Source: Gemmatimonadota bacterium (GTDB lineage Bacteria; Gemmatimonadota; Gemmatimonadetes; Palauibacterales; Palauibacteraceae). Taken from it: DNA of 64,000 bases. The position numbers and the translations under genes are program-made. A model generated the notes under the pieces. That model searched no databases and was not told the origin of the DNA. It worked only from the letters and a program-made list of their open reading frames with translations. The stretch spans positions 1,056,001 through 1,120,000 of the forward strand of contig OZ220691.1 in the NCBI GenBank assembly GCA_965116475.1. The letters run 5' to 3'. Shown here piece by piece: positions 43,230 to 55,742 of this stretch (position 1 is its first letter; each line of letters opens with the position of its first letter).

Positions 43230-43303
43230 CCTGATCCTGCAAGATCGTTCGCGAACCGGCTGAGCGGGAGGGGGTAACTGGATTGGTCCACATGGGGAGA
43301 TTA

Positions 43304-43324
43304 TGGTACATGATACCTGTACCA
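43304..43324. promoter_or_regulatory. Inverted repeat TGGTACA-N7-TGTACCA, probable TA autoregulatory operator
   Basis: Perfect 7-bp inverted repeat 30 bp upstream of the antitoxin ATG; resembles TGTACA-core YefM operators. Confidence 0.65.
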
Positions 43325-43354
43325 GTACCTGAGAACAGGATGAGGGAGTCGAAG

Positions 43355-43639
43355 ATGATTCGGGAGACGACCTACACCGGGGCCCGCAAGAACCTCGCCA
43401 CGTTGATGGACCAGGTCACCGACACGCACGAACCGGTCCTGATTCGGCGCCGCGGCAAGGCGCCGGTCGCCCTGATCGCCGCAGAAGACCTCAGTTCATG
43501 GATGGAGACGGTATACGTGCTCCGCTCACCGAAGAACGCCCAGAGACTGCGGGAAGCGATCGCCTGGGTCGAAAGCGGGCAGGGAGAGCCTGTGGACCTC
43601 GACGAGCTCGCCCAACGGCTTGGCCTTGAAGGCGCCTGA
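43355..43639 (+). CDS. yefM: Phd/YefM family antitoxin
   Basis: YT.AR.NLA..MD.V.....PV.I.R, ET.Y.LRSP.NA.RL. Confidence 0.92.
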   Translation: MIRETTYTGARKNLATLMDQVTDTHEPVLIRRRGKAPVALIAAEDLSSWMETVYVLRSPKNAQRLREAIAWVESGQGEPVDLDELAQRLGLEGA

Positions 43640-43907
43640 CGGAAAGAGCACGCGGGACGCCGTCCTCGCGCCTCAGTGTCTGCGGGATCTGGAGTATTGG
43701 ACCCGGACGAAACCCAAGCGAGCTCGACGGGTGTTCAAGCTCGTTCGGTCGACGCTGCGAGATCCGTTCGACGGCCTCGGAAAGCCGGAACCGCTACGCG
43801 GAGAGTTCGCCGGTTCGTGGTCCCGCCGAATCGACGGCGAGCATCGCTTGATCTATCGGGTCACGGCCACGCGAGTCTACTTCCTGTCCGCCCGAGATCA
43901 CTACTGA
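43620..43907 (+). CDS. yoeB: Txe/YoeB family toxin
   Basis: DL.YW, PF.G.GKPEPL, WSRRID.EHRL.Y, R.HY C-terminus; overlaps the antitoxin. Confidence 0.93.
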   Translation: MALKAPDGKSTRDAVLAPQCLRDLEYWTRTKPKRARRVFKLVRSTLRDPFDGLGKPEPLRGEFAGSWSRRIDGEHRLIYRVTATRVYFLSARDHY

Positions 43908-45769: not shown

Positions 45770-45915
45770 TTACCGGACCACGGGCTGGAGCTTGCCGCAC
45801 TCGTACTCCGGCGGTGCCTCGGCACCGAGGAGGTGGCGACGAAGTAGTCCCAGCGGCGGCGCATCATGTAGGGCTCGTTGCCGAAGCCTTGGCCCCGGTT
45901 GCGGAGCAGCAGCGG
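45770..45915 (-). repeat. Degenerate second copy of the 3' end of the S9 peptidase gene (left island boundary)
   Basis: Aligns with 52852-52997; 48 bp identical (45838-45885 = 52921-52968); encodes NRGQGFGNEPYMMRRRWDYFV/frameshift/HLLGAEAPPEYECGKLQPVVR*. Confidence 0.92.
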
Positions 45916-46099
45916 GCCCGAACGAGCAGCGGAAGGGGCACTCTGGTCACGGGCCTATCGTTTCGGTCCACCGCTTGAATCCGTGGCCACACCACGACTA
46001 GTTTCTGACGAACCGGCACCATCGGAGCCGCGCGCGTCAACCGACGCTTGATCGGTGGGCTCTAGCGATCCAAGAGGGAGAACTCAAGGAGGTAGCGCG

Positions 46100-46828
46100 G
46101 TGCGGAATTCGAACGGTGCCATTCCGGCGATCAGCTTGTTCACCGGTGCGGGGGGCTTGGACCTTGGGTTCGCGAGGGCAGGTTTCGACATACGTGTCGC
46201 GGTCGAAACCGACCCGGCCGCGGTGGCTACACTTCGCCGCAACTGGCGAAGTACACCCGTAATCACGCGCGGGCTCGAAGAGGTATCAACCGGTACGCTA
46301 CTCGACAAGGCCGATCTGAGCGTCGGGGAGGTGGGTATGGTCTTCGGCGGTCCTCCTTGCCAGTCCTTTTGCATCGCCGGAAACGGCCGCGGGCTTGAAG
46401 ACCCGCGCGGGCAGCTGTTGCTTGAGTTTTGTCGCGTTGTCCGTGAAGCACGGCCCAGCGTGTTCCTGATCGAAAACGTGCCGGGACTGCTCCGCGTACC
46501 CCATATCGCTAGTGCAATCCATGACGCCGTGAACCGCAGCTCAGGATCGGACTACCACGTCTCACACGACATTCTCAACGCCGCGGAGTACGGCGTACCG
46601 CAGCACCGGAAGCGGGTCTTCTTTGTCGGCTGGAGGGAATCCGGCGACTTCTATTTTCCGAAGCCGACGCACTACGTGGAAGGCCGACGTCGCCACAGCG
46701 GACTCAAGCCCGCTGTCACTGTCGCGCAAGCTTTATGGGGGCTACCCGAGCCGGATCCGCCATCTGCAATAGCCTATCGTGTTGCAAAGACAATTCCCGA
46801 TCGGAATCGGCAATGGTACGGAAAGTAA
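46100..46828 (+). CDS. DNA (cytosine-5) methyltransferase, alpha subunit (motifs I-VIII), M.AquI alpha-like
   Basis: AAGGAGG RBS then GTG at 46100; SLFTGAGG, GGPPCQSF, D.RG.L, ENVPG, YGVPQHRKR; ends before the TRD. Confidence 0.9.
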   Translation: MRNSNGAIPAISLFTGAGGLDLGFARAGFDIRVAVETDPAAVATLRRNWRSTPVITRGLEEVSTGTLLDKADLSVGEVGMVFGGPPCQSFCIAGNGRGLEDPRGQLLLEFCRVVREARPSVFLIENVPGLLRVPHIASAIHDAVNRSSGSDYHVSHDILNAAEYGVPQHRKRVFFVGWRESGDFYFPKPTHYVEGRRRHSGLKPAVTVAQALWGLPEPDPPSAIAYRVAKTIPDRNRQWYGK

Positions 46829-47886
46829 CGAACCACCAAGCCACTGCCCACGCGGACACTACTCTCGAAAAGATCCGCCTCGTTCGTGAGGGCAAGCGGC
46901 TATCCGGTCGACACAGCGCCTTCGGAGCCGCCTACCGACTCCTAGACCCCGAAAAGCCTTCACCTACGGTAACACGTAGTGGTTTTCGAGATTTCATCCA
47001 TCCTACTGAAGATCGACTCTGTACTGTTCGAGAGCTCGCGCGGCTCCAGACCTTCCCGGACAACTATGTGCTCGAAGGGCGTAGGTGCGACACCTACGCC
47101 GGCAGTCGCTATAGGCAACAAACCCAACACGAACAACTTGGCAATGCCGTACCCCCTCGACTCGCGTATGCACTCGCCGGAGCGATTAGGCGGCAGCTCT
47201 TCGACAGACGGGATCCTCCATCTCTCGTTCGCCCGATTTCCCCAACTGTGTTTCGCCAACTTGACTCCACATATCCGGACACGGATCTAGGGAACAAACT
47301 CAACCCTCTTGATGAACTCATCTATATCATCCTTTCAAGGCGAACCAAGGAGAATCAGTACCAAGAGGCGTATCGGAATTTGCGTCGTATATATCGCGGC
47401 TGGAGTCGTGTGCTCGAAGCTGATTTGGAGGAGGTCGAACAACTCTTGCAACCAGTCGGTCTCGCTCGCCAGAAGGCACGAGCGATCAAAGCGCTGCTTA
47501 CTACTGTCCAAGCTGATATGGGTCGCGTGTCTTTAGCATCTCTAAAATCTGCTTCTGATTCCGCCGCTTATCATTACCTCCGGTCGCTACCCGGCGTGAG
47601 CGACAACACGGCCAAGTGTGTTATGCTGTACTCACTCGGCCGTGATGTTCTCCCCGTCGACACACACACATATCGCGTGTCACGACGTCTTGGCCTGATC
47701 CCACAATCCGTATCGTACTACCGGTCGCCGCGCTTACTAGCGAAAGCAGTACCACGCCCCTTGCGGCGACGATATCACATCGTGTCAATCCTACACGGCC
47801 GGAAGGTCTGCAGAGCTCACTCGCCACGCTGTGACGTCTGCCCGGTGACGAACAGTTGTCCGCACTCCACCCACCCCAAGCTCTAG
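46813..47886 (+). CDS. C5-MTase beta subunit (TRD + motifs IX/X, M.AquI beta-like) fused to HhH-GPD/endonuclease III-family glycosylase
   Basis: PSPTVTRSGFRDFIHP..DR..TVRELARLQTFPD, QLGNAVPP; then LDELI..ILS, GLA.QKA, LPGVSDNTA, PVDTH, C-x6-C-x2-C-x5-C. Confidence 0.88.
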   Translation: MVRKVTNHQATAHADTTLEKIRLVREGKRLSGRHSAFGAAYRLLDPEKPSPTVTRSGFRDFIHPTEDRLCTVRELARLQTFPDNYVLEGRRCDTYAGSRYRQQTQHEQLGNAVPPRLAYALAGAIRRQLFDRRDPPSLVRPISPTVFRQLDSTYPDTDLGNKLNPLDELIYIILSRRTKENQYQEAYRNLRRIYRGWSRVLEADLEEVEQLLQPVGLARQKARAIKALLTTVQADMGRVSLASLKSASDSAAYHYLRSLPGVSDNTAKCVMLYSLGRDVLPVDTHTYRVSRRLGLIPQSVSYYRSPRLLAKAVPRPLRRRYHIVSILHGRKVCRAHSPRCDVCPVTNSCPHSTHPKL

Positions 47887-50144
47887 TTATACGCCGGCGT
47901 TAGCGCCTCATGGGCAAGCTCAATGCACTCGGCCAGGCATTGGTATCGGAAGTCGTCATAGTCTACTGGGTCGACGGAATTGTCAGGACCCCAGCCAAGG
48001 TTCGGAAGTTCGTCCTGCAGCCGCCGGGCGACGAATGCCTCGCAGATTATCTCTGCGATTATAGCCCTAGCCTGTGGATCCTTTTGGCCCGGCCACTTTT
48101 CGCCTGTGCTCGGATCAAGATCCGGGCCGAGCACTCGTGCAAGAGTCGCATGTCTTGCCGCAATCTGCACCAAATATGAATCTGTCGCGTCCCACCTGAA
48201 TCGACGACCCGGCGCGCCGAAGTGAGACACATCTTCAAACTTGAAGTTGATCCTAGGCTTGCCGCCGATCTCGCGAAACACGATGATCGCGTCGTCCTTG
48301 TGGTGCTCCAGCTGAGCCTTCAGCACGGCCTTTGCCTCGGTATCTGAGACCGCTCGCACTGACGCCGTAGCAACTCCAAGACGACCATCGAACTCTAGCG
48401 TGACGTGCGACCGATTCAATGAGACATCGCCGTGGCGAGGGGTTACATGAACCGTCGCCCCATCCAGCGAAGGATCGGCGTAGATCGTAATGTGCTTGTT
48501 TCGTCCGGGGATTGATGTATAGCGACGTTGTGAAAACTGAAGATCTTGATCCAAGTCGATGACGCCCTCGATTTGGTCGCGTACTGCCACTTTGAGGATG
48601 TGAACGGCGCTCTCGGCACAAATCTCGATCGTCGCGAGATCCGTCAACTGATCGCCGCTGACCTCGACGGAACCACGAAACACGCCAGGGTGCTCGTCCA
48701 TCAGTTGAAGTTCGATTGTGTCGTGAGACACAAACAGATTACCCGCCGTCGCAGCGATCTCACACTCGACGACACGGTCTCCATCGGCCTCTTTCCGATA
48801 GTAGATTCCCAACCGCTTCGCTTTACCGATCTCAAGACGGAGAGTAGCTGGGATTACGGTTAGGCCCATCTGGAGCTCCGGCCCGGACCCTGGTCCTTCG
48901 GGTGTGTCGAGCTTTTCCGCCAACTGCTCGCCCAACCTATCTAGCGCCTGCCGGAGCTCAGAACCAACGCGTTGCTCGGTCGGCGGAGTTAGTTCCTTTT
49001 GAAGCTCGGATAACGCCTTCTCGATCACAGGACGGACTGCATCGTGAACCGCATGCACAAAAGGATGTTCGCCATTCAGCCCTAAGCGATCAGGATCGGT
49101 CACCTGTGTCGGATTGAAAGCATCGCGTTGTATGCTTGGGTCCGCCTCTCGAGCCCGCTCGAATTCGTCATACTGCAGCAGAAGTTCGGGGACGTGAGGG
49201 AGATACAACTCCCCGAACAGATGTTGGCCCGCTAGTGTGTCCGATCCTCGCGCACCCAGGAAGCCGATATCGTGCCCCGTCCTGCCGTCGACGATGAGGA
49301 CCCCGCCCTCGCTTTTCCACAGGCGGGTGATCGAACGTCCGCCTAACCGCAATGTCTCTTCAGATCTCTGGAGCAATAGCCGAGCGCGTTGCCCGTCCGA
49401 ATACGTAACGAACTCCGGCAGCTCCATATCTTCCTCCACCAGCACCGCGCCTACCGGCATGAACCCCTCTATAAAACGATCTCGACCGACCCTCCCCCCT
49501 CTCATCTCCCTCATCTGTAGCGGGATGAGCGGCAAACCCTGCGGGTGATATCGTATCTCAACGTGTCGCTCCAGGTCCCCGGCAAGCGTATCGAAACGTG
49601 GCTTCGTGATGTCGGCGAACGGCCTAAGCGTTACGACGGTCCCGTTCCCCGCGTGCAGCTCCAGACGCGCTCGCACGTCATCATCCGCCGCCGCCGAAAT
49701 CACTACTTTCGATCGTCGTCCCTCAACCACCTTGCATGCGGAGTAACGATCGCCATGAATGCTCTCGAACAACACTTCCCCTAGCACGCCGACATCCTTG
49801 GCACCTCTCGCGTTGAGTCCTCGCACCGTCGCACTGTCGAAGCTACTCGCAGGATCGCCATACTGTAGGAGACGATCCTCCATAACCTCACGGCTCATCC
49901 CCTCGAATCGATCTCGAATGACAAGGCACTCCTGGCCTCGCGTCGTGTCGTAGTCAAGAACAATCGGCCGTGCGACCAATTCTCTCTCTTGTAGCTCACC
50001 CTTCTCAACCAGGCGGTACGCAGAATCTCGCGCATTGGTTATTAGCTCGACGAGTCCCCGGACAACGAATCCGCTCATAGCACGTGACGCGTTGCGTCTC
50101 AAATAACGTGCCGCGACTGGCAGGTCGATCATTTCGTCAGGCAT
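47883..50144 (-). CDS. GHKL (MORC/MutL/Hsp90-type) ATPase with long uncharacterised C-terminus
   Basis: ELITNARDS, IRD..EGM, RG..ARGAK, GNGT.VT Bergerat-fold motifs. Confidence 0.8.
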   Translation of the reverse strand: MPDEMIDLPVAARYLRRNASRAMSGFVVRGLVELITNARDSAYRLVEKGELQERELVARPIVLDYDTTRGQECLVIRDRFEGMSREVMEDRLLQYGDPASSFDSATVRGLNARGAKDVGVLGEVLFESIHGDRYSACKVVEGRRSKVVISAAADDDVRARLELHAGNGTVVTLRPFADITKPRFDTLAGDLERHVEIRYHPQGLPLIPLQMREMRGGRVGRDRFIEGFMPVGAVLVEEDMELPEFVTYSDGQRARLLLQRSEETLRLGGRSITRLWKSEGGVLIVDGRTGHDIGFLGARGSDTLAGQHLFGELYLPHVPELLLQYDEFERAREADPSIQRDAFNPTQVTDPDRLGLNGEHPFVHAVHDAVRPVIEKALSELQKELTPPTEQRVGSELRQALDRLGEQLAEKLDTPEGPGSGPELQMGLTVIPATLRLEIGKAKRLGIYYRKEADGDRVVECEIAATAGNLFVSHDTIELQLMDEHPGVFRGSVEVSGDQLTDLATIEICAESAVHILKVAVRDQIEGVIDLDQDLQFSQRRYTSIPGRNKHITIYADPSLDGATVHVTPRHGDVSLNRSHVTLEFDGRLGVATASVRAVSDTEAKAVLKAQLEHHKDDAIIVFREIGGKPRINFKFEDVSHFGAPGRRFRWDATDSYLVQIAARHATLARVLGPDLDPSTGEKWPGQKDPQARAIIAEIICEAFVARRLQDELPNLGWGPDNSVDPVDYDDFRYQCLAECIELAHEALTPAYN

Positions 50145-50166: not shown

Positions 50167-50775
50167 TTAGAGGTCGAACTGCTTTCTACCTTCCTGAATG
50201 AAGCGTGTGAGCCTACGGCTCTCTTCTCGATCGGGCAACCCCTCGATTGTACGTTCGACACGGGCCAATCTCCCAGAGGCCACAAAAGGGGAGGCGTCGG
50301 GAAAGAGCTTAAGAGCAGCGAGAAACGCATCCCGACCAATCGCCTGCATCCTTCTTCCGGCTTGAAACTGTCCGAAGGCGTCGGAATCGACGATCGGCTG
50401 AATCAACCGTGAGTAATCCACCGGTCGCTTCGTCGCGGTTACGTTGTGTCGCTCGTGGACAGCTTTGAGTCCTCGGGCTCGTTCTATCCCCGGGCGCGTG
50501 AGAGCGAATCGTTTGATCCGACCCATTCGATCACCCGCTGTCTTCCGCATGTCCTGATCTGTCACTAACTTCCCTGCCCGCGACTTCTTCGCTTCAGAAA
50601 GGTGAACCCTAACAGCATCTTTGTCTGGAAAATCCGGGTAGCGGCGCCAACAGAAAAGGGCGGGAAACATCTCGTGAGCCTTTACCGCGATCGCCTCCAG
50701 GTCGCTCTCCCCGCCGAGTTCGTAGAGCGCCAGAACAACCAGTAACGTCTTGTTTACTTCTGCGTTGTCATTCAC
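50167..50775 (-). CDS. Hypothetical protein, probable winged-helix N-terminal domain
   Basis: LALYELGG...E.IA..A..MFP..F, wing ending FALT..G; tightly spaced in the operon. Confidence 0.65.
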   Translation of the reverse strand: MNDNAEVNKTLLVVLALYELGGESDLEAIAVKAHEMFPALFCWRRYPDFPDKDAVRVHLSEAKKSRAGKLVTDQDMRKTAGDRMGRIKRFALTRPGIERARGLKAVHERHNVTATKRPVDYSRLIQPIVDSDAFGQFQAGRRMQAIGRDAFLAALKLFPDASPFVASGRLARVERTIEGLPDREESRRLTRFIQEGRKQFDL

Positions 50776-50790
50776 TATCTGAATCCTAGA

Positions 50791-52689
50791 TTAGACGAGA
50801 TCAAATTCAACCAGCGTTTGCTCCGGGTAGAATGTTGCGACCAGATAGTCGCCTTCCCGAACCCCAGCATTCCTCAGCTGGCGATACGTTCCCCAGAAGC
50901 TATTGCCCCGTATCGTCACAGGCACGACTTCGCCCGTGGGAAGGCTACAGCGCCACTCTTCTCTCTGCGTCGAGAGGGCTGACGGAAAGGCGAAAACACC
51001 GCTAAGGTTGAAGCGGCTCACGCGGTACGTTACGATGAAGCGCCCCGGACCTTCCCAGCCGGAAGTGATGATGTTCGTGGACCGTGAGCCAAGCCATTCG
51101 TTTCGGCGTTCCGAGAGCAGCTGGTTCGGGACGCGGCGTCCCCGCAAGGCGTAGACGGCAGTCGCAACTCTGGTAAGAATGGGGCTTCGGGTCAACACCG
51201 AGGCCATCGGCTCGGAGAAGCCGCGCCTCTTCATCCCGTCGACCATATCTTGGAGGAGAATGACCCCTTGGTGCTCTTCTATCAGTTCTACCAAGGCGTG
51301 CTCGGACTCCGACAGGATCTCGGCCTGCAGTGGCTTGCCTCGGAGTCGCGCTCGACCCGCGGTAACTTCGAACCCGGAATGCTGTCTTAGGACGAACTCG
51401 ACCACGTCCCGTGGCGGCACCGGATCCAATCTGGGGTTGCGGAGAAGACCCGAGTGAAGTTGGACAATTGGCAAGGGAGCCGTAACGGCTAACACCTTCC
51501 GTGCTTGCCGGACCAGCGATGAATCCGGAGAGGGTTTGGGGACCAGATACCCGAGAACGCGATCAAGACTTGAGCCGCGCGGCGCAATAAGTGTGGCGGC
51601 GTGTCCCGCAGAGAAAGGCGAGAGTTCTTCGAGGGCTGATTCCTTCACTGCACCAACACGTCGAAGTTCAGCGCGTGCCTTACCCTTCAGCCTCTTTAGT
51701 GCCTCGCTGAGCTGTCCTGTCTCGACCCAAGCTGAGCGACCCTCCACACCAATCCATACGCGGGTTTCTGGATCCCAACTGATCTTCGGAATCAAGCCGA
51801 CCTTAGACAACACGCTCAGGGGACTGACAGAAAGGTCGTCTCGTAGGACTTCCCCAACCGACAACCGTTCGACCAAGACTGTGGCGGAAGCAATTCCCCC
51901 TGCGAGATCGATCTCTCGAACCACTCGAGAACCGATCGGTAACCGTAGACCCGATTCGGCCAACTTTTTCAGATGTCGGGTTACGATCTGTCGGACCCTT
52001 TCGCGCGTGATTCCAGTTCTCTCGCCAAGTTCCTCGAATGTAAACTGCTCAGCGGAACGGTAGCGAAGACGCGCAAGTACCAGATCTCGATTGCGGGCCC
52101 CTAAGTTCGCACATAGAGCCTGAACCTCTTCGTCCAAGGTCCTGGCTGATGCAATCGACAGGAGAAGCTCGGCGCTCAAGGCCGGAACGCATATGTCGTC
52201 CTGTTTGGTTTCCCAGCTCATTTCAACGAGCTTTTCCATCGGAATCGTACCCAGAACGTCCACTAACTCACGGAGCTTTGCAAGCCGGGTCGGGCTGAGA
52301 ACACCGGACAGGTCACAGTCAGACAGATCTCCGAGAGTATGGCAACCCTGTTGATAAAGCGCCTCCAGCGCACCTTTGTCGAGGGCGAGACTTGAGGTCG
52401 GAACACGGGCTAGGTACGAGGGCACGTCAGAGACGGTCGGCTTGTAGTCCGTGACGACCTCTTGGGTTGCCGTGATTGCCCCGAGACGCCGGAGAAAATC
52501 GACAATCTCAGTCACGGTTCCGGGGCCTATCTGATCAATCCGCAAGAGGTCTGCAGTCGATAGGCCATCCAGTGCCCCCACGGTCCTCAATCGATTGCGA
52601 AGCAGGAGGTTCCTTGTGCGACTCGAAAGATCCGTTCCGGCAATCGACATATGCTGAATGGCAACAGGTACCTGTACAACCTCGCGCAC
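50791..52689 (-). CDS. RNA polymerase alpha-CTD-like repeats + sigma70 region 4 HTH + further domains
   Basis: DLSSRTRNLL.RN.L.TVG.L...S..DLL.I..IG..TV.EI (alphaCTD); T.EELG...GITRERVRQI (sigma4); no sigma region 2. Confidence 0.82.
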   Translation of the reverse strand: MREVVQVPVAIQHMSIAGTDLSSRTRNLLLRNRLRTVGALDGLSTADLLRIDQIGPGTVTEIVDFLRRLGAITATQEVVTDYKPTVSDVPSYLARVPTSSLALDKGALEALYQQGCHTLGDLSDCDLSGVLSPTRLAKLRELVDVLGTIPMEKLVEMSWETKQDDICVPALSAELLLSIASARTLDEEVQALCANLGARNRDLVLARLRYRSAEQFTFEELGERTGITRERVRQIVTRHLKKLAESGLRLPIGSRVVREIDLAGGIASATVLVERLSVGEVLRDDLSVSPLSVLSKVGLIPKISWDPETRVWIGVEGRSAWVETGQLSEALKRLKGKARAELRRVGAVKESALEELSPFSAGHAATLIAPRGSSLDRVLGYLVPKPSPDSSLVRQARKVLAVTAPLPIVQLHSGLLRNPRLDPVPPRDVVEFVLRQHSGFEVTAGRARLRGKPLQAEILSESEHALVELIEEHQGVILLQDMVDGMKRRGFSEPMASVLTRSPILTRVATAVYALRGRRVPNQLLSERRNEWLGSRSTNIITSGWEGPGRFIVTYRVSRFNLSGVFAFPSALSTQREEWRCSLPTGEVVPVTIRGNSFWGTYRQLRNAGVREGDYLVATFYPEQTLVEFDLV

Positions 52690-52851: not shown

Positions 52852-55200
52852 TTACGGCACCAGGGGCTGCAGCTTGCCGAACTCGTACTGCGGGGGCGGT
52901 TCGGCGCCGAGGAGGTGGCGGACGAAGTAGTCCCAGCGGCGGCGCATCATGTAGGGCTCGTTGCCGAAACCGTGGCCGCGGTTCGGGAAGAGGAGGAGGT
53001 CGAAGTCCTTGTTCGCGGCGATGAGGGCGTCAACGACCAGCATCGTGTTCGAGTGCGGGACGTTCGTGTCCATCGTGCCGTGGGCGATGAGGAGCTTGCC
53101 CACCAGGTTCTCCGCCACGAGCTGGTTTGCCTGGTTGTCGTAGTTCGTGGCGCCGTCGGCGTACTCCTCCAGCAGCCCCTGGTACTTCTCGCCCCAGTCG
53201 TCCTCGTAGTTGCGGTTGTCGTGGTTTCCGGCCTGCGAGACGGCAACCTTGTAGAAATCCGGGTAGCGCAGGATCCCCGAAGTGGAGGCGAAGCCGCCGC
53301 CGGAGTGGCCGTAGATCCCGACCCGGTCGATATCGATCCAGGGGTGGCGCTCGGCGAGTTGGCGGATGCCGGCGATCTGATCCGGGAGCCCGTTGTCTCC
53401 CATGTTTCCGTAGTAGGCGTCCTGGAACGTCTTCGAGCGCCTCGGCGTCCCCATCGCGTCGAGTTCGATGACGACGAACCCGAGTTCGGCCAGCGACTGC
53501 AGATCCCGGTGCGCCGCGCGGAAGTTCCGGCTCCCCACGCTCCCGCTCTGCGGCCCCGGGTAGAGGTAGTTGATCACGGGATACGTGGCGGCCGGGTCGA
53601 AGTTCGAGGGACGGAACATGAGCCCGTGCAGATCCGTCTCGCCGTCGCGCGCCTTCACCGTGAACGGGATCGGCGGCTGCCAGCCGGTCCGCTCCAGGCG
53701 TGAGATGTCGGCCCGTTCGACGGTCTGCAGCAGGTCGCCGTCCATGTCCCGGACGACGGTGACCGGCGGGATCGTGGGCGTGGAGTACTGGTCGACGAAC
53801 GTCTCGCCATCCGGCGCGAGCCAGACGACGTGGTTCGCGCTGTCGGGCGTGAGGAGTTGGACGTCGCCCCCGTCGAGGCCGGCGCGGTACAGGTACATGA
53901 AGTAGGGGTCGCCGGGCTCCCGCCCGTTCCCCATGAAGAGGATCTCCCGAGCCTCCGCGTCGACCGCCACCACGTCCTCCACCTGCCACGCGCCCGAGGT
54001 CACCTGCCGCTTCGGTTCTCCGGTGTCCGCGTCGTAGAGGTAGAGGTGCCCCCAGTCGTCGCGCTGGGAGTACCAGAGGATCTCGTCGGACTCGGAGAGG
54101 TAGCGCCAGTTGGCGTGGGACTCGAAGAAGGTCTCCACGACCTCCTCGAACAGGTCGCGGACCTCGCCCGTGCGCGCATCGGCCATGCGGACGAGCGCCC
54201 GCTTGTGGTCGCGCGAACTCGACACGAAGACGAAGCGGGAGCCGTCGGCGCTCCACTCGACGTCGGAGAACGTCCCGCCGCAGGCCACGTGGTCGCAGAC
54301 CGTGGAGCGGTGCTGGTCCGGGGGCATGTCCAGGCGGACGACGCGGCTCGCCGCCGGCGCCTCCGTGTCGATCACCACGCGGTGGATGCGGAAGATGACC
54401 GAGTCCTCCGGGAGCGGGTAGCGCCACGCCTCGAGTTCGGGGTGCCCGACCTCGGTCGTGACCATGTACATCATCCCCACGCCGCGGGCGTCGTGCTGGA
54501 AGGTGGCGATGCGCCGCGAGTCGGGAGACCACTTGAGCACGGGACGGTCGCTCTTCACCCAGCCCGCGTTGTTCGTCGCGTAGCCGAAGTCCGCGACGCC
54601 GTCCTCGGTGAGTTGGGTCTCCTCCCCCGTGGCCAGATCCCGGAGCCACAGGTTGTGGTCGCGGATGAAGGCCGCCCTGGTCCCGTCCGGTGACACGATG
54701 TCGAAGCGGCGGGCCGTCGTGCCCTCGGGCGCCGGGACCGCCTCGCAGCGGTCGGCGTCGAGCCCGCAGGCGTACGTCTCTCCCTCGACGTCGACTTCGA
54801 AGCGGATCCTCCCGCCCTCGAGCGCGAGATCCCCGAACGGGAGCGCGAAGGCAGTGTGCTCCTCGCCGGTTGCCGCGGTGAGCGCGGCGGCGATGCGGGC
54901 GTGGTCGAAGGCGCGCTCCCGCGTCCCCGCGGCCGGATCGATGAGGACGTACTCGTTGCCCCCCTCGAACCGGGTCCGATACCAGAACCGCCCGTCCTCC
55001 AGCCAGACCGGGATGACGGAAGCCCCGAGCACGAGCGGATTCACCTGGCTCGCGAGCCTCCCCTCCGCCCGCGCGTAGTCCGCCACCGTCAGCGCGTCGG
55101 GCGCCTCCTGGGCGAACGCACCCGGCGTCGGTGAGAGGTTGGCGGCGATCAGCAGCGTTGCGCTGGCTATCCGGCTCATGCTTGCGATCCTGTTGGACAT
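52852..55200 (-). CDS. S9B dipeptidyl peptidase IV-family protein
   Basis: DPP IV propeller; YPGPQ, GHSGGG nucleophile, HGTMD.NV, RGHG; ATG at 55200. Confidence 0.93.
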   Translation of the reverse strand: MSNRIASMSRIASATLLIAANLSPTPGAFAQEAPDALTVADYARAEGRLASQVNPLVLGASVIPVWLEDGRFWYRTRFEGGNEYVLIDPAAGTRERAFDHARIAAALTAATGEEHTAFALPFGDLALEGGRIRFEVDVEGETYACGLDADRCEAVPAPEGTTARRFDIVSPDGTRAAFIRDHNLWLRDLATGEETQLTEDGVADFGYATNNAGWVKSDRPVLKWSPDSRRIATFQHDARGVGMMYMVTTEVGHPELEAWRYPLPEDSVIFRIHRVVIDTEAPAASRVVRLDMPPDQHRSTVCDHVACGGTFSDVEWSADGSRFVFVSSSRDHKRALVRMADARTGEVRDLFEEVVETFFESHANWRYLSESDEILWYSQRDDWGHLYLYDADTGEPKRQVTSGAWQVEDVVAVDAEAREILFMGNGREPGDPYFMYLYRAGLDGGDVQLLTPDSANHVVWLAPDGETFVDQYSTPTIPPVTVVRDMDGDLLQTVERADISRLERTGWQPPIPFTVKARDGETDLHGLMFRPSNFDPAATYPVINYLYPGPQSGSVGSRNFRAAHRDLQSLAELGFVVIELDAMGTPRRSKTFQDAYYGNMGDNGLPDQIAGIRQLAERHPWIDIDRVGIYGHSGGGFASTSGILRYPDFYKVAVSQAGNHDNRNYEDDWGEKYQGLLEEYADGATNYDNQANQLVAENLVGKLLIAHGTMDTNVPHSNTMLVVDALIAANKDFDLLLFPNRGHGFGNEPYMMRRRWDYFVRHLLGAEPPPQYEFGKLQPLVP

Positions 55201-55382
55201 CCTGGGTCCTCTGCGGCATGCGAAGTCGCAAGATGCCGACCGTCCCCCGCGCCGGCCACCGCGGTCTCGCGAGGTGTCCGGTGGCGCGCCGGGCGGGTAT
55301 TTTGGAGAGGATGACTTCCGGCCGGAACGGCGTCCGGCGGGCCGTGCGTTGAGCGGGGCGAAGGAAGGCGGAAGGAGGGCAC

Positions 55383-55742
55383 GTGTTGCAACCTCGGCTG
55401 GACGCTCGGAGAACGCGCTCCCTGCTCGACCTCGCGGCAACCAAGGTGCAGGTCGTACAGAGCCGGGCGAGCGCGAAGGACTACCTGGATGTGAACGCTC
55501 TGATTCACCTCGGGGGGATCGACCTTGGTCAGGCCCTGGGCGCGGCCACAGCGGTCCACGGCGATCGCTTCAATCCGATCCTGACGCTGAAGGCGCTGAC
55601 CTTCTTTGACGATGGCGATCTGTCGGAGGTCCCGATCATGGTCCGCGACCGACTCGCGGCAGCCGTCCGGGGCGTCAACCTGGAAGGCCTGCCGAATTTC
55701 CCCGCTCGCCAAGGTCTTCTGGCGTCCCGAGGGTCGTCATGA
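55383..55742 (+). pseudogene. C-terminal fragment of AbiEii/AbiGii-like nucleotidyltransferase
   Basis: DLAATK...QSRA..KDY.D, LKAL.FF.DGD; the N-terminal GGTA/R.S.D.D motifs are absent. Confidence 0.65.

Follow-up and report, generated by a model that had tools for sequence, protein, structure and literature searches.

Cytosine methylation is mutagenic, and this effect is offset by Vsr nucleases in bacteria and, on one archaeal plasmid, by MIG, a glycosylase of the HhH-GPD/[4Fe-4S] type that acts in the repair of 5-methylcytosine (5mC) deamination and whose gene adjoins a C5 methylase gene. A 64,000-nucleotide stretch of a Gemmatimonadota genome (contig OZ220691.1, positions 1,056,001 to 1,120,000; the whole stretch is referred to below as the window) carries an open reading frame (ORF), at positions 46813-47886 on the forward strand, whose predicted product of 357 amino acids (aa) consists of the beta part of a split C5 methyltransferase, a short linker, and a complete HhH-GPD/[4Fe-4S] glycosylase of the endonuclease III (EndoIII) kind. 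The glycosylase part of this fusion belongs to a clade of EndoIII-like domains whose members recur in fusions with C5 methylases or in genes next to them.

Several described systems share one or another feature with this gene. M.AquI, according to passages of PMC3404938, is a C5 methyltransferase split into two subunits. Compared via that published description, M.AquI (recognition site CYCGRG) and the window enzyme are split at the same place and are encoded by adjacent, overlapping genes. In the window, however, the beta subunit is longer by a 215-aa glycosylase, and the partner genes form a GHKL ATPase module instead of encoding a type II endonuclease. Vsr genes, in the settings described in passages of PMC2292703 and PMC8011034, lie beside C5 methylase genes, often overlapping or adjacent to them, in operons that include GHKL, helicase, or nuclease genes; glycosylases are not mentioned in the searched passages of these two papers. 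Vsr thus resembles the glycosylases discussed below in being a dedicated companion of C5 methylases in the same types of operons. Vsr, a PD-(D/E)xK nuclease that nicks 5' of the T, is not homologous to the base-excising HhH-GPD enzyme of the window, so the analogy is a functional and conjectural one. The MORC/paraMORC GHKL operons, as they appear in passages of Iyer, Abhiman, and Aravind (2008; PMC2292703), share with the window locus a GHKL ATPase, a C5 methylase, a deamination repair gene, and mobility, whereas the window has a glycosylase in place of Vsr and no helicase or nuclease was recognized among its partner proteins.

Three further comparisons concern the glycosylase domain itself. 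MIG (Mig.MthI from Methanothermobacter; PDB 1kea) lacks the nucleophilic Lys, as does the window copy (the residue is Tyr in MIG and Asn in the window), but it is not fused to its methylase, unlike the window glycosylase. In the END nucleases, as described in passages of PMC12191111, an inactive EndoIII domain fused to a nuclease serves as the sensor of hypermodified DNA. The likeness is that an EndoIII-like domain has been brought into a defense protein by fusion; however, the END domains are devoid of catalytic residues and have a nuclease partner, while the window domain retains the catalytic Asp, has a methylase partner, and belongs to a family in which nearly all members have the Lys. Finally, the window protein lacks both the insert that makes the DEMETER/ROS1 domain discontinuous and the extra C-terminal domains of those enzymes.

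In Pfam searches, residues 25 to 126 of the fused protein match positions 238 to 323 (of 324) of the C-5 methylase model PF00145 (E value, 2.4e-10), and residues 172 to 314 match the HhH-GPD model PF00730 above its cut-off (E value, 5.5e-10). These placements, the alignment with EndoIII-1 from Deinococcus radiodurans (DrEndoIII-1), and the invariant Cys residues bear out what had been read from the letters of the window and its ORF translations before any database was consulted (the sequence-only reading), namely, that a target recognition domain with motifs IX and X runs in frame into a complete HhH-GPD domain with a PVDTH motif and a Cys motif. The gene immediately upstream encodes the other half of the methylase: its product matches TIGR00675 at 150 bits, and the motifs FTGAGG, PPCQSF, ENV, and QHRKR are readable in it. 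The alpha and beta proteins represent the two parts of a genuinely split C5 methyltransferase of the M.AquI type, and their binding to each other would be expected from the M.AquI precedent. When modeled alone with AlphaFold2 (AF2), the beta part gives a poor fold, which is what one would expect of half an enzyme. Stand-alone relatives of beta size number at least 1,847, and the best 120 of these are 55 to 62% identical to the window beta part and mostly 129 to 146 aa long. The nearest unfused split methylases adjoin a gene for an XcyI-family endonuclease. One of them, from Octadecabacter sp. (L001, 7199-9420; alpha, 267 aa; beta, 137 aa; overlapping genes), has a 343-aa XcyI-family restriction endonuclease encoded downstream and represents a classical type II system. 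That neighbor is compatible with a CCCGGG/CYCGRG-like site, which is a hint only and shows nothing for the window enzyme.

A methylase encoded in two overlapping frames could by itself resemble a frameshift, and the sequence-only reading had named misassembly or loss of a stop codon as what would undo the fusion; in that case, a frameshifted methylase would run by accident into an nth-like neighbor, and the gene would be an artifact or a pseudogene. The conservation of the junction and of the fusion makes the probability of this practically nil, and the idea was rejected. The alpha stop codon and the beta start codon overlap in 8 of 8 fused loci (the window and 7 metagenome loci with upstream DNA, at 45 to 62% protein identity), with a common junction pattern, (A/G)TG GTA/GCA CGG ..., and a stop codon 13 to 19 nucleotides further on. 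An analogous overlap is found in all 9 of the unfused split methylase loci examined, and through it the two genes are translationally coupled. The search for the same architecture elsewhere, as the sequence-only reading had proposed, was also successful: although a first contig scan with query-specific patterns detected only unfused split methylases and no fused relative, a word-indexed search revealed the beta-plus-glycosylase architecture in 45 other protein clusters (∼350 to 430 aa, 42 to 82% identity). Logan contigs from two public runs, belonging to two studies, cover positions 45859-48100 with 0 differences; one of these runs is possibly the source of the assembly, and the conserved two-frame junction is the more telling evidence that the fusion is not an artifact.

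The glycosylase domain is contiguous, comprises ∼215 aa, and ends the protein. Its AF2 model has predicted local distance difference test (pLDDT) values of 82 to 95 over residues 140 to 350 and matches EndoIII structures in Foldseek with a probability of 1.00 (TMt, 0.75 to 0.84). The closest solved structures by sequence are DrEndoIII-1 (E value, 6e-27) and DrEndoIII-3, followed by classical EndoIII; more distant PDB sequence matches include ROS1 (8e-12), NTHL1, and MIG (1kea; 8.5e-8), so the kinship with MIG that the sequence-only reading had brought in proved to be remote. The best NCBIfam model, NF053634 for the DR2438-type “monofunctional DNA glycosylase,” scores 113 bits against a cut-off of 400, and the Nth equivalogs TIGR01083 (88.3 versus 211.7 bits) and NF007978 (60.8 versus 405 bits), as well as mutY TIGR01084 (only 24.8 bits), also remain below their cut-offs. 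In the family alignment, the cluster loop residues Cys333, Cys340, Cys343, and Cys349 are invariant, and the Asp of PVDTH is present in all rows of the two clades described below. The Vsr nuclease domain (PF03852) was not found in the fused protein by Pfam.

The relationship of this glycosylase to C5 methylases was assessed on 211 glycosylase domains, which came from the fusions, their stand-alone relatives, 80 contig loci selected as one genome per species, and paralogues encoded in the same genome as the window. Methylase linkage was scored with a locally built methylase hidden Markov model (HMM) in DNA fetched for 6 kb on either side. A C5 methylase was detected within 6 kb in 11 of the 80 genome loci, and all 11 fell into a single clade (FastTree support, 97), which also holds 50 stand-alone proteins (context unknown), all 53 beta-glycosylase rows, and all 8 full-length fusions of ∼600 aa. 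Its sister clade (83 rows, among them the own-genome paralogue L090) includes 68 genome loci, with a methylase in 0 of 68. An IQ-TREE analysis of 93 rows reproduced the split (49 versus 44 rows; SH-aLRT, 98.1) and united the beta fusions in one clade at 99. The linked clade is further marked by the signature residues Asn161, Ile172, Lys268, and Tyr273, which the sister clade lacks. Because the 11 linked loci share a clade with all of the fusions and linkage is absent from the sister clade, this is a distinct EndoIII-like branch dedicated to C5 methylases, to which it has been fused in at least three arrangements. Longer proteins add to the range of these fusions: 273 clusters of 626 to 2,000 aa were matched, and among the 120 long fusions listed, all of which contain both domains according to local HMMs, the glycosylase is N-terminal in 113 and C-terminal in 7. 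In public records, the long fusions are named simply cytosine methyltransferases. A 735-aa methylase-glycosylase fusion is encoded in L151.

The linked glycosylases have varied neighbors, including SNF2 helicases (5 loci), HATPase_c_3 proteins (2 loci), and nucleases of the Mrr, HNH-MTaX1, PLD, and Bpu10I types. A module consisting of a C5 methylase, a linked glycosylase, and an SNF2-related helicase of 600 to 750 aa recurs in L100, L103, L104, L129, and L151, together with one or two large proteins without a Pfam match; the L151 copy is next to an rve-type transposase. This module may represent another methylase-based defense system. In L101 (622-12102), genes for a C5 methylase and a linked glycosylase share one co-directional array with those for PRTase-CE and ORC-CDC6-like proteins, Mrr, and a PLD-family nuclease. 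Many of the glycosylase-methylase fusions of 780 to 830 aa (P0404, P0419, P0425, and others) additionally contain HTH_3 or HTH_31 domains (PF01381, PF13560), in the manner of controller protein fusions.

The sequence-only reading had noted LPGVSDNT at the position of the lyase Lys and had compared the window enzyme with the monofunctional glycosylases MutY and MIG. The substitution itself is present, with Asn265 occupying the column of the Schiff-base Lys of EndoIII (Lys120 in the E. coli enzyme). In the same alignment, the Nth-like protein from this genome has Lys (LPGVARKT) and the MutY-like one has Tyr (LPGVGPYT), which shows that the column has been assigned correctly. As a family trait, on the other hand, monofunctionality of the MutY/MIG kind did not hold up. 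By column counts, the lyase Lys is found in 116 of 120 linked-clade members, 83 of 83 sister-clade members, and 119 of the 120 listed long fusions, and the catalytic Asp is present in all of them. In the linked clade, a residue other than Lys is limited to the window copy and 3 others. The four closest relatives of the window copy have Lys in three cases and Thr in one (P0002). Since nearly all members of the clade keep the Lys, the monofunctional reading is confined to the window copy, where Asn265 is a rare exception. With Lys replaced by Asn, this copy may be lyase dead or impaired and would be at best a pure glycosylase, perhaps a weakened one. Faster decay of the glycosylase in the window lineage was considered, and no clear sign of it was seen: the ratio of glycosylase identity to beta identity is 0.92 to 0.93 with respect to the two closest relatives, compared to a median of 0.84 for other pairs. 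The ratios of 0.65 to 0.78 obtained with more distant relatives give a hint of a faster branch and are inconclusive.

Besides the split enzyme, the genome encodes three C5 methylases, of which two have an adjacent Vsr, and it carries housekeeping Nth-like and MutY-like genes elsewhere. Because two other methylases have Vsr alongside and the Nth-like and MutY-like genes lie at other places, the fused glycosylase is an extra enzyme that is tied to one methylase and sits in the position of Vsr. The third of these methylases, also of full length (G000:C1:127201-128211), differs from the other two in that no Vsr match is reported nearby.

The fused gene is part of an island of ∼7.1 kb that comprises five genes, coding for the alpha subunit, the beta-glycosylase, and three proteins referred to here as p753, p202, and p632 (Table 1); this cassette was not mentioned in the sequence-only reading. 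The G+C content is 0.57 to 0.58 between 46 and 53 kb and 0.66 to 0.72 around it, and Logan contigs of 7.07 to 7.10 kb terminate at the direct repeats. The fusion was found in none of 40 relatives, 24 of them from the same genus. Bracketed by the repeats and absent from these relatives, the cassette was acquired horizontally; there is no integrase inside the island. All five genes are found together in L010, L011, L012, and L014 (48 to 60% identity), and the cassette is partly represented in L013.

Table 1. Features of the beta-glycosylase gene and of the island that carries it (window coordinates)
Feature	Position	Strand	Basis
Left copy of 143-nucleotide imperfect direct repeat; orphan 3' end of S9 peptidase gene, left border	45770..45912		Repeat search, 84-89% identity
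C5 methyltransferase alpha subunit, 257 aa; motifs I-VIII and proximal variable region	46055..46828	+	PF00145 3-166, E 2.2e-46
16-nucleotide overlap of beta ATG (46813) with alpha stop codon (46826-46828), different frame	46813..46828	+	ORF positions
Methyltransferase beta part, residues 1-130; distal target recognition region, motif IX (RELARLQTFPD), motif X (GNAVPP)	46813..47202	+	PF00145 238-323
Linker of ∼14 residues from methylase part to glycosylase	47203..47244	+	Low pLDDT at residues 132-136; glycosylase helices from ∼residue 144
EndoIII-like HhH-GPD glycosylase with [4Fe-4S] loop, residues 145-357	47245..47886	+	PF00730, DrEndoIII-1, AF2, Foldseek
Asn265 codon AAC, position of EndoIII Schiff-base Lys	47605..47607	+	Alignment
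Catalytic Asp283 codon GAC (PVDTH)	47659..47661	+	Aligned with DrEndoIII-1
Iron-sulfur loop C-X6-C-X2-C-X5-C; Cys333, 340, 343, 349	47809..47859	+	Invariant alignment columns
p753, GHKL (HATPase_c_3-like) ATPase; ∼450-aa C-terminal region of unknown fold	47883..50144	-	N-box, G1, G2
p202, conserved small protein, no family	50167..50775	-	48-57% identical copies in 4 related cassettes
p632, multidomain DNA-binding protein	50791..52689	-	Pfam, AF2 pLDDT 93.5, Foldseek
Right copy of repeat, 3' end of intact S9 peptidase gene 52852-55440(-), right border	52852..52995		Repeat search

The assignment of p753 to the GHKL ATPases is based on the conserved N-box, G1, and G2 motifs and on Atlas features that lead to HATPase_c_3 clusters. 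There was no direct match to a Pfam GHKL model, and a PDB profile search returned only weak matches to the HSP90 N-domain (E values of 0.12 to 0.7), which were not accepted. In L016, which belongs to the second beta-glycosylase clade, a p753 homologue with 24% identity does match PF13589 at 1.9e-9; the gene order there is different, with the p753 homologue and a p202-like gene upstream of the alpha and beta genes. In the window, the beta-glycosylase and p753 genes converge so closely that their stop codons overlap (47883-47886), and in related cassettes these gene ends lie within ∼10 to 20 nucleotides of each other. The p202 protein had no match in Pfam, NCBIfam, or PADLOC. The p632 protein combines a series of recognizable DNA-binding domains: two RpoA-CTD-like HhH domains, sigma-70 region 4, winged helices in tandem, and, at the C terminus, a B3-like pseudobarrel. 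The pseudobarrel resembles both the N-terminal domain of LlaJI.R1 and the B3 domains of plants (Foldseek probability, 1.00, with weak E values of 2e-3 to 6e-2). The p632 family, 1,290 representative clusters at an E value of ≤1e-3, appears to be uncharacterized as a whole. Among the known defense systems, PADLOC was silent on p753 and p202 and gave for p632 matches at the level of the helix-turn-helix only (PglW, MzaA), so none was assigned. No nuclease was recognized in p753, p202, or p632 by Pfam, NCBIfam, PADLOC, the PDB profile search of p753, or the Foldseek search of p632; one could be hidden in p202 or in the ∼450-residue C-terminal region of p753, neither of which has an assigned fold. 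The three proteins are probably a restriction or defense arm, and the cassette may be an undescribed defense system.

What the tethered glycosylase does can be approached from its linkage to the methylase. The reading that we put forward, and to which we give an even chance, is that it repairs methylation-linked damage at the sites of its own methylase and so would be a base excision analogue of Vsr. The alpha and beta subunits would assemble into an active methylase on the target site, and the tethered glycosylase would act at target sites to remove the T that 5mC deamination leaves opposite G and perhaps also U in that position; base excision repair would then restore C, and the methylase would re-mark the site. 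Since C5 methylases bind tightly to target bases that are mismatched, detection of the mismatch could fall to the methylase part itself. The alpha/beta-glycosylase pair would thereby constitute the modification-and-repair arm of the mobile five-gene cassette. A Vsr-like repair role is supported by the finding of the clade only in fusions with C5 methylases or beside them. The built-in Vsr equivalent suggested by the sequence-only reading accordingly fits the linkage of the clade to methylases, the operons typical of Vsr, and the presence of Vsr next to two of the three other methylases in this genome; the role as such is a conjecture.

Several points weigh against repair by the tethered glycosylase. 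The argument for it is drawn from gene linkage throughout, two Vsr genes already exist in the genome, and MIG, the known T:G glycosylase, is a distant relative. Loss of the Lys in bifunctional HhH-GPD enzymes usually cripples base excision, so the window copy may repair nothing. With no nuclease recognized, the glycosylase is the sole recognizable DNA-cutting activity of the cassette, which would favor a role as its effector. Moreover, the characterized homologues are little guide to the activity of the linked clade. DrEndoIII-1 (DR2438) and DrEndoIII-3, the closest solved structures to the window domain by both sequence and fold, fall with the never-linked sister clade (clade-A profile, 241 bits; clade-B profile, 206 bits). 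In passages of PMC9268735, DrEndoIII-1 is described as weak and mostly monofunctional although its Lys is present, and DrEndoIII-3 is described as having no detectable activity despite having both Lys and Asp while being the best binder of damaged DNA.

The glycosylase could instead be the DNA-damaging effector of the cassette, a restriction glycosylase led by the recognition region to unmethylated target sites in foreign DNA, where it would remove bases (and, in the Lys-bearing relatives, nick the strand) under the control of the GHKL ATPase and the DNA binder, which might also amplify the attack. The absence of a recognized nuclease domain from p753, p202, and p632 speaks for such an arrangement, as do the acquisition of the cassette as a low-G+C island missing from the 40 relatives and the persistent association of the glycosylase with the GHKL gene in two clades that are deeply diverged and differ in gene order. 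Yet members of the same clade adjoin ordinary nucleases (Mrr, HNH, PLD, and Bpu10I type), so those systems need no glycosylase as an effector; within one complex, methylation and killing aimed at the same site would be in competition; the window copy lacks the lyase Lys; and p753 and p202 could conceal a nuclease after all. We therefore consider a restriction glycosylase improbable. Similarly doubtful is the broader proposal that the five-gene island is a new restriction-modification-like defense system with a base excision arm, in which the GHKL ATPase and the B3/winged-helix/sigma-r4 binder would license the attack and the glycosylase would double as a Vsr-like repairer on host sites.

Repair could also be directed at lesions other than T:G. 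C5 methylases make 3-methylcytosine as a by-product, and the glycosylase might remove this side product or, for example, oxidized 5mC. The linkage evidence is the same as for T:G repair, and the nearest characterized homologues, in passages of PMC9268735, perform poorly with the classical substrates of EndoIII; the sequence itself gives no pointer to 3-methylcytosine or oxidized 5mC, however, and the Vsr-like genomic position argues for T:G, which leaves this version unlikely. A noncatalytic role, at least for the window copy, would make the domain a sensor that binds flipped or odd bases as a reader of lesions or modified bases. Asn265 in place of the nucleophile (with Thr in the close relative P0002) would suit it, and there are precedents in the inactive EndoIII sensor of the END nucleases (passages of PMC12191111) and in DrEndoIII-3, which binds DNA and is inactive (passages of PMC9268735). 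The retention of Asp283 and of all other invariant residues in the window copy, and of the Lys in nearly the whole family, makes a mere sensor distinctly improbable, all the more so as the END domains are without any catalytic residues and the Lys-less MutY and MIG are active glycosylases. Removal of the methylase's own mark in the manner of DEMETER/ROS1 is very improbable indeed. ROS1 is among both the PDB sequence matches and the fold matches, and the family keeps the Lys and Asp as ROS1 does, but a 5mC eraser would undo the product of its partner, and the insert and extra domains of ROS1 are absent. Descent from a DEMETER-type ancestor was likewise rejected, as the linked-clade profile scores ROS1 at 107 bits, compared to 137 bits for the profile of the unlinked sister clade.

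The linked glycosylase branch points to a third solution to methylation mutagenesis, next to Vsr and MIG, and apparently a widespread one. If the repair role proposed here is true, these proteins would carry out sequence-targeted base excision repair by tethering a glycosylase to the recognition module of a methylase, and they would parallel, in nature, the fusions engineered for targeted base editing and offer a ready source of site-directed glycosylases. No description of methylase-linked EndoIII-like glycosylases was found in a full-text literature search, whose scope did not extend to REBASE and Iyer et al. 2011 (Prog Mol Biol Transl Sci). Methylase-coupled deamination repair and split methylases are both already known, and we rate the glycosylase-fused form as a variation on these rather than a new category.

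Approximately 2 kb to the left of the island, at 43283-43907, the window also carries overlapping genes for a YefM antitoxin (Phd/YefM; E value, 1.1e-20) and a YoeB toxin (E value, 7.5e-28).

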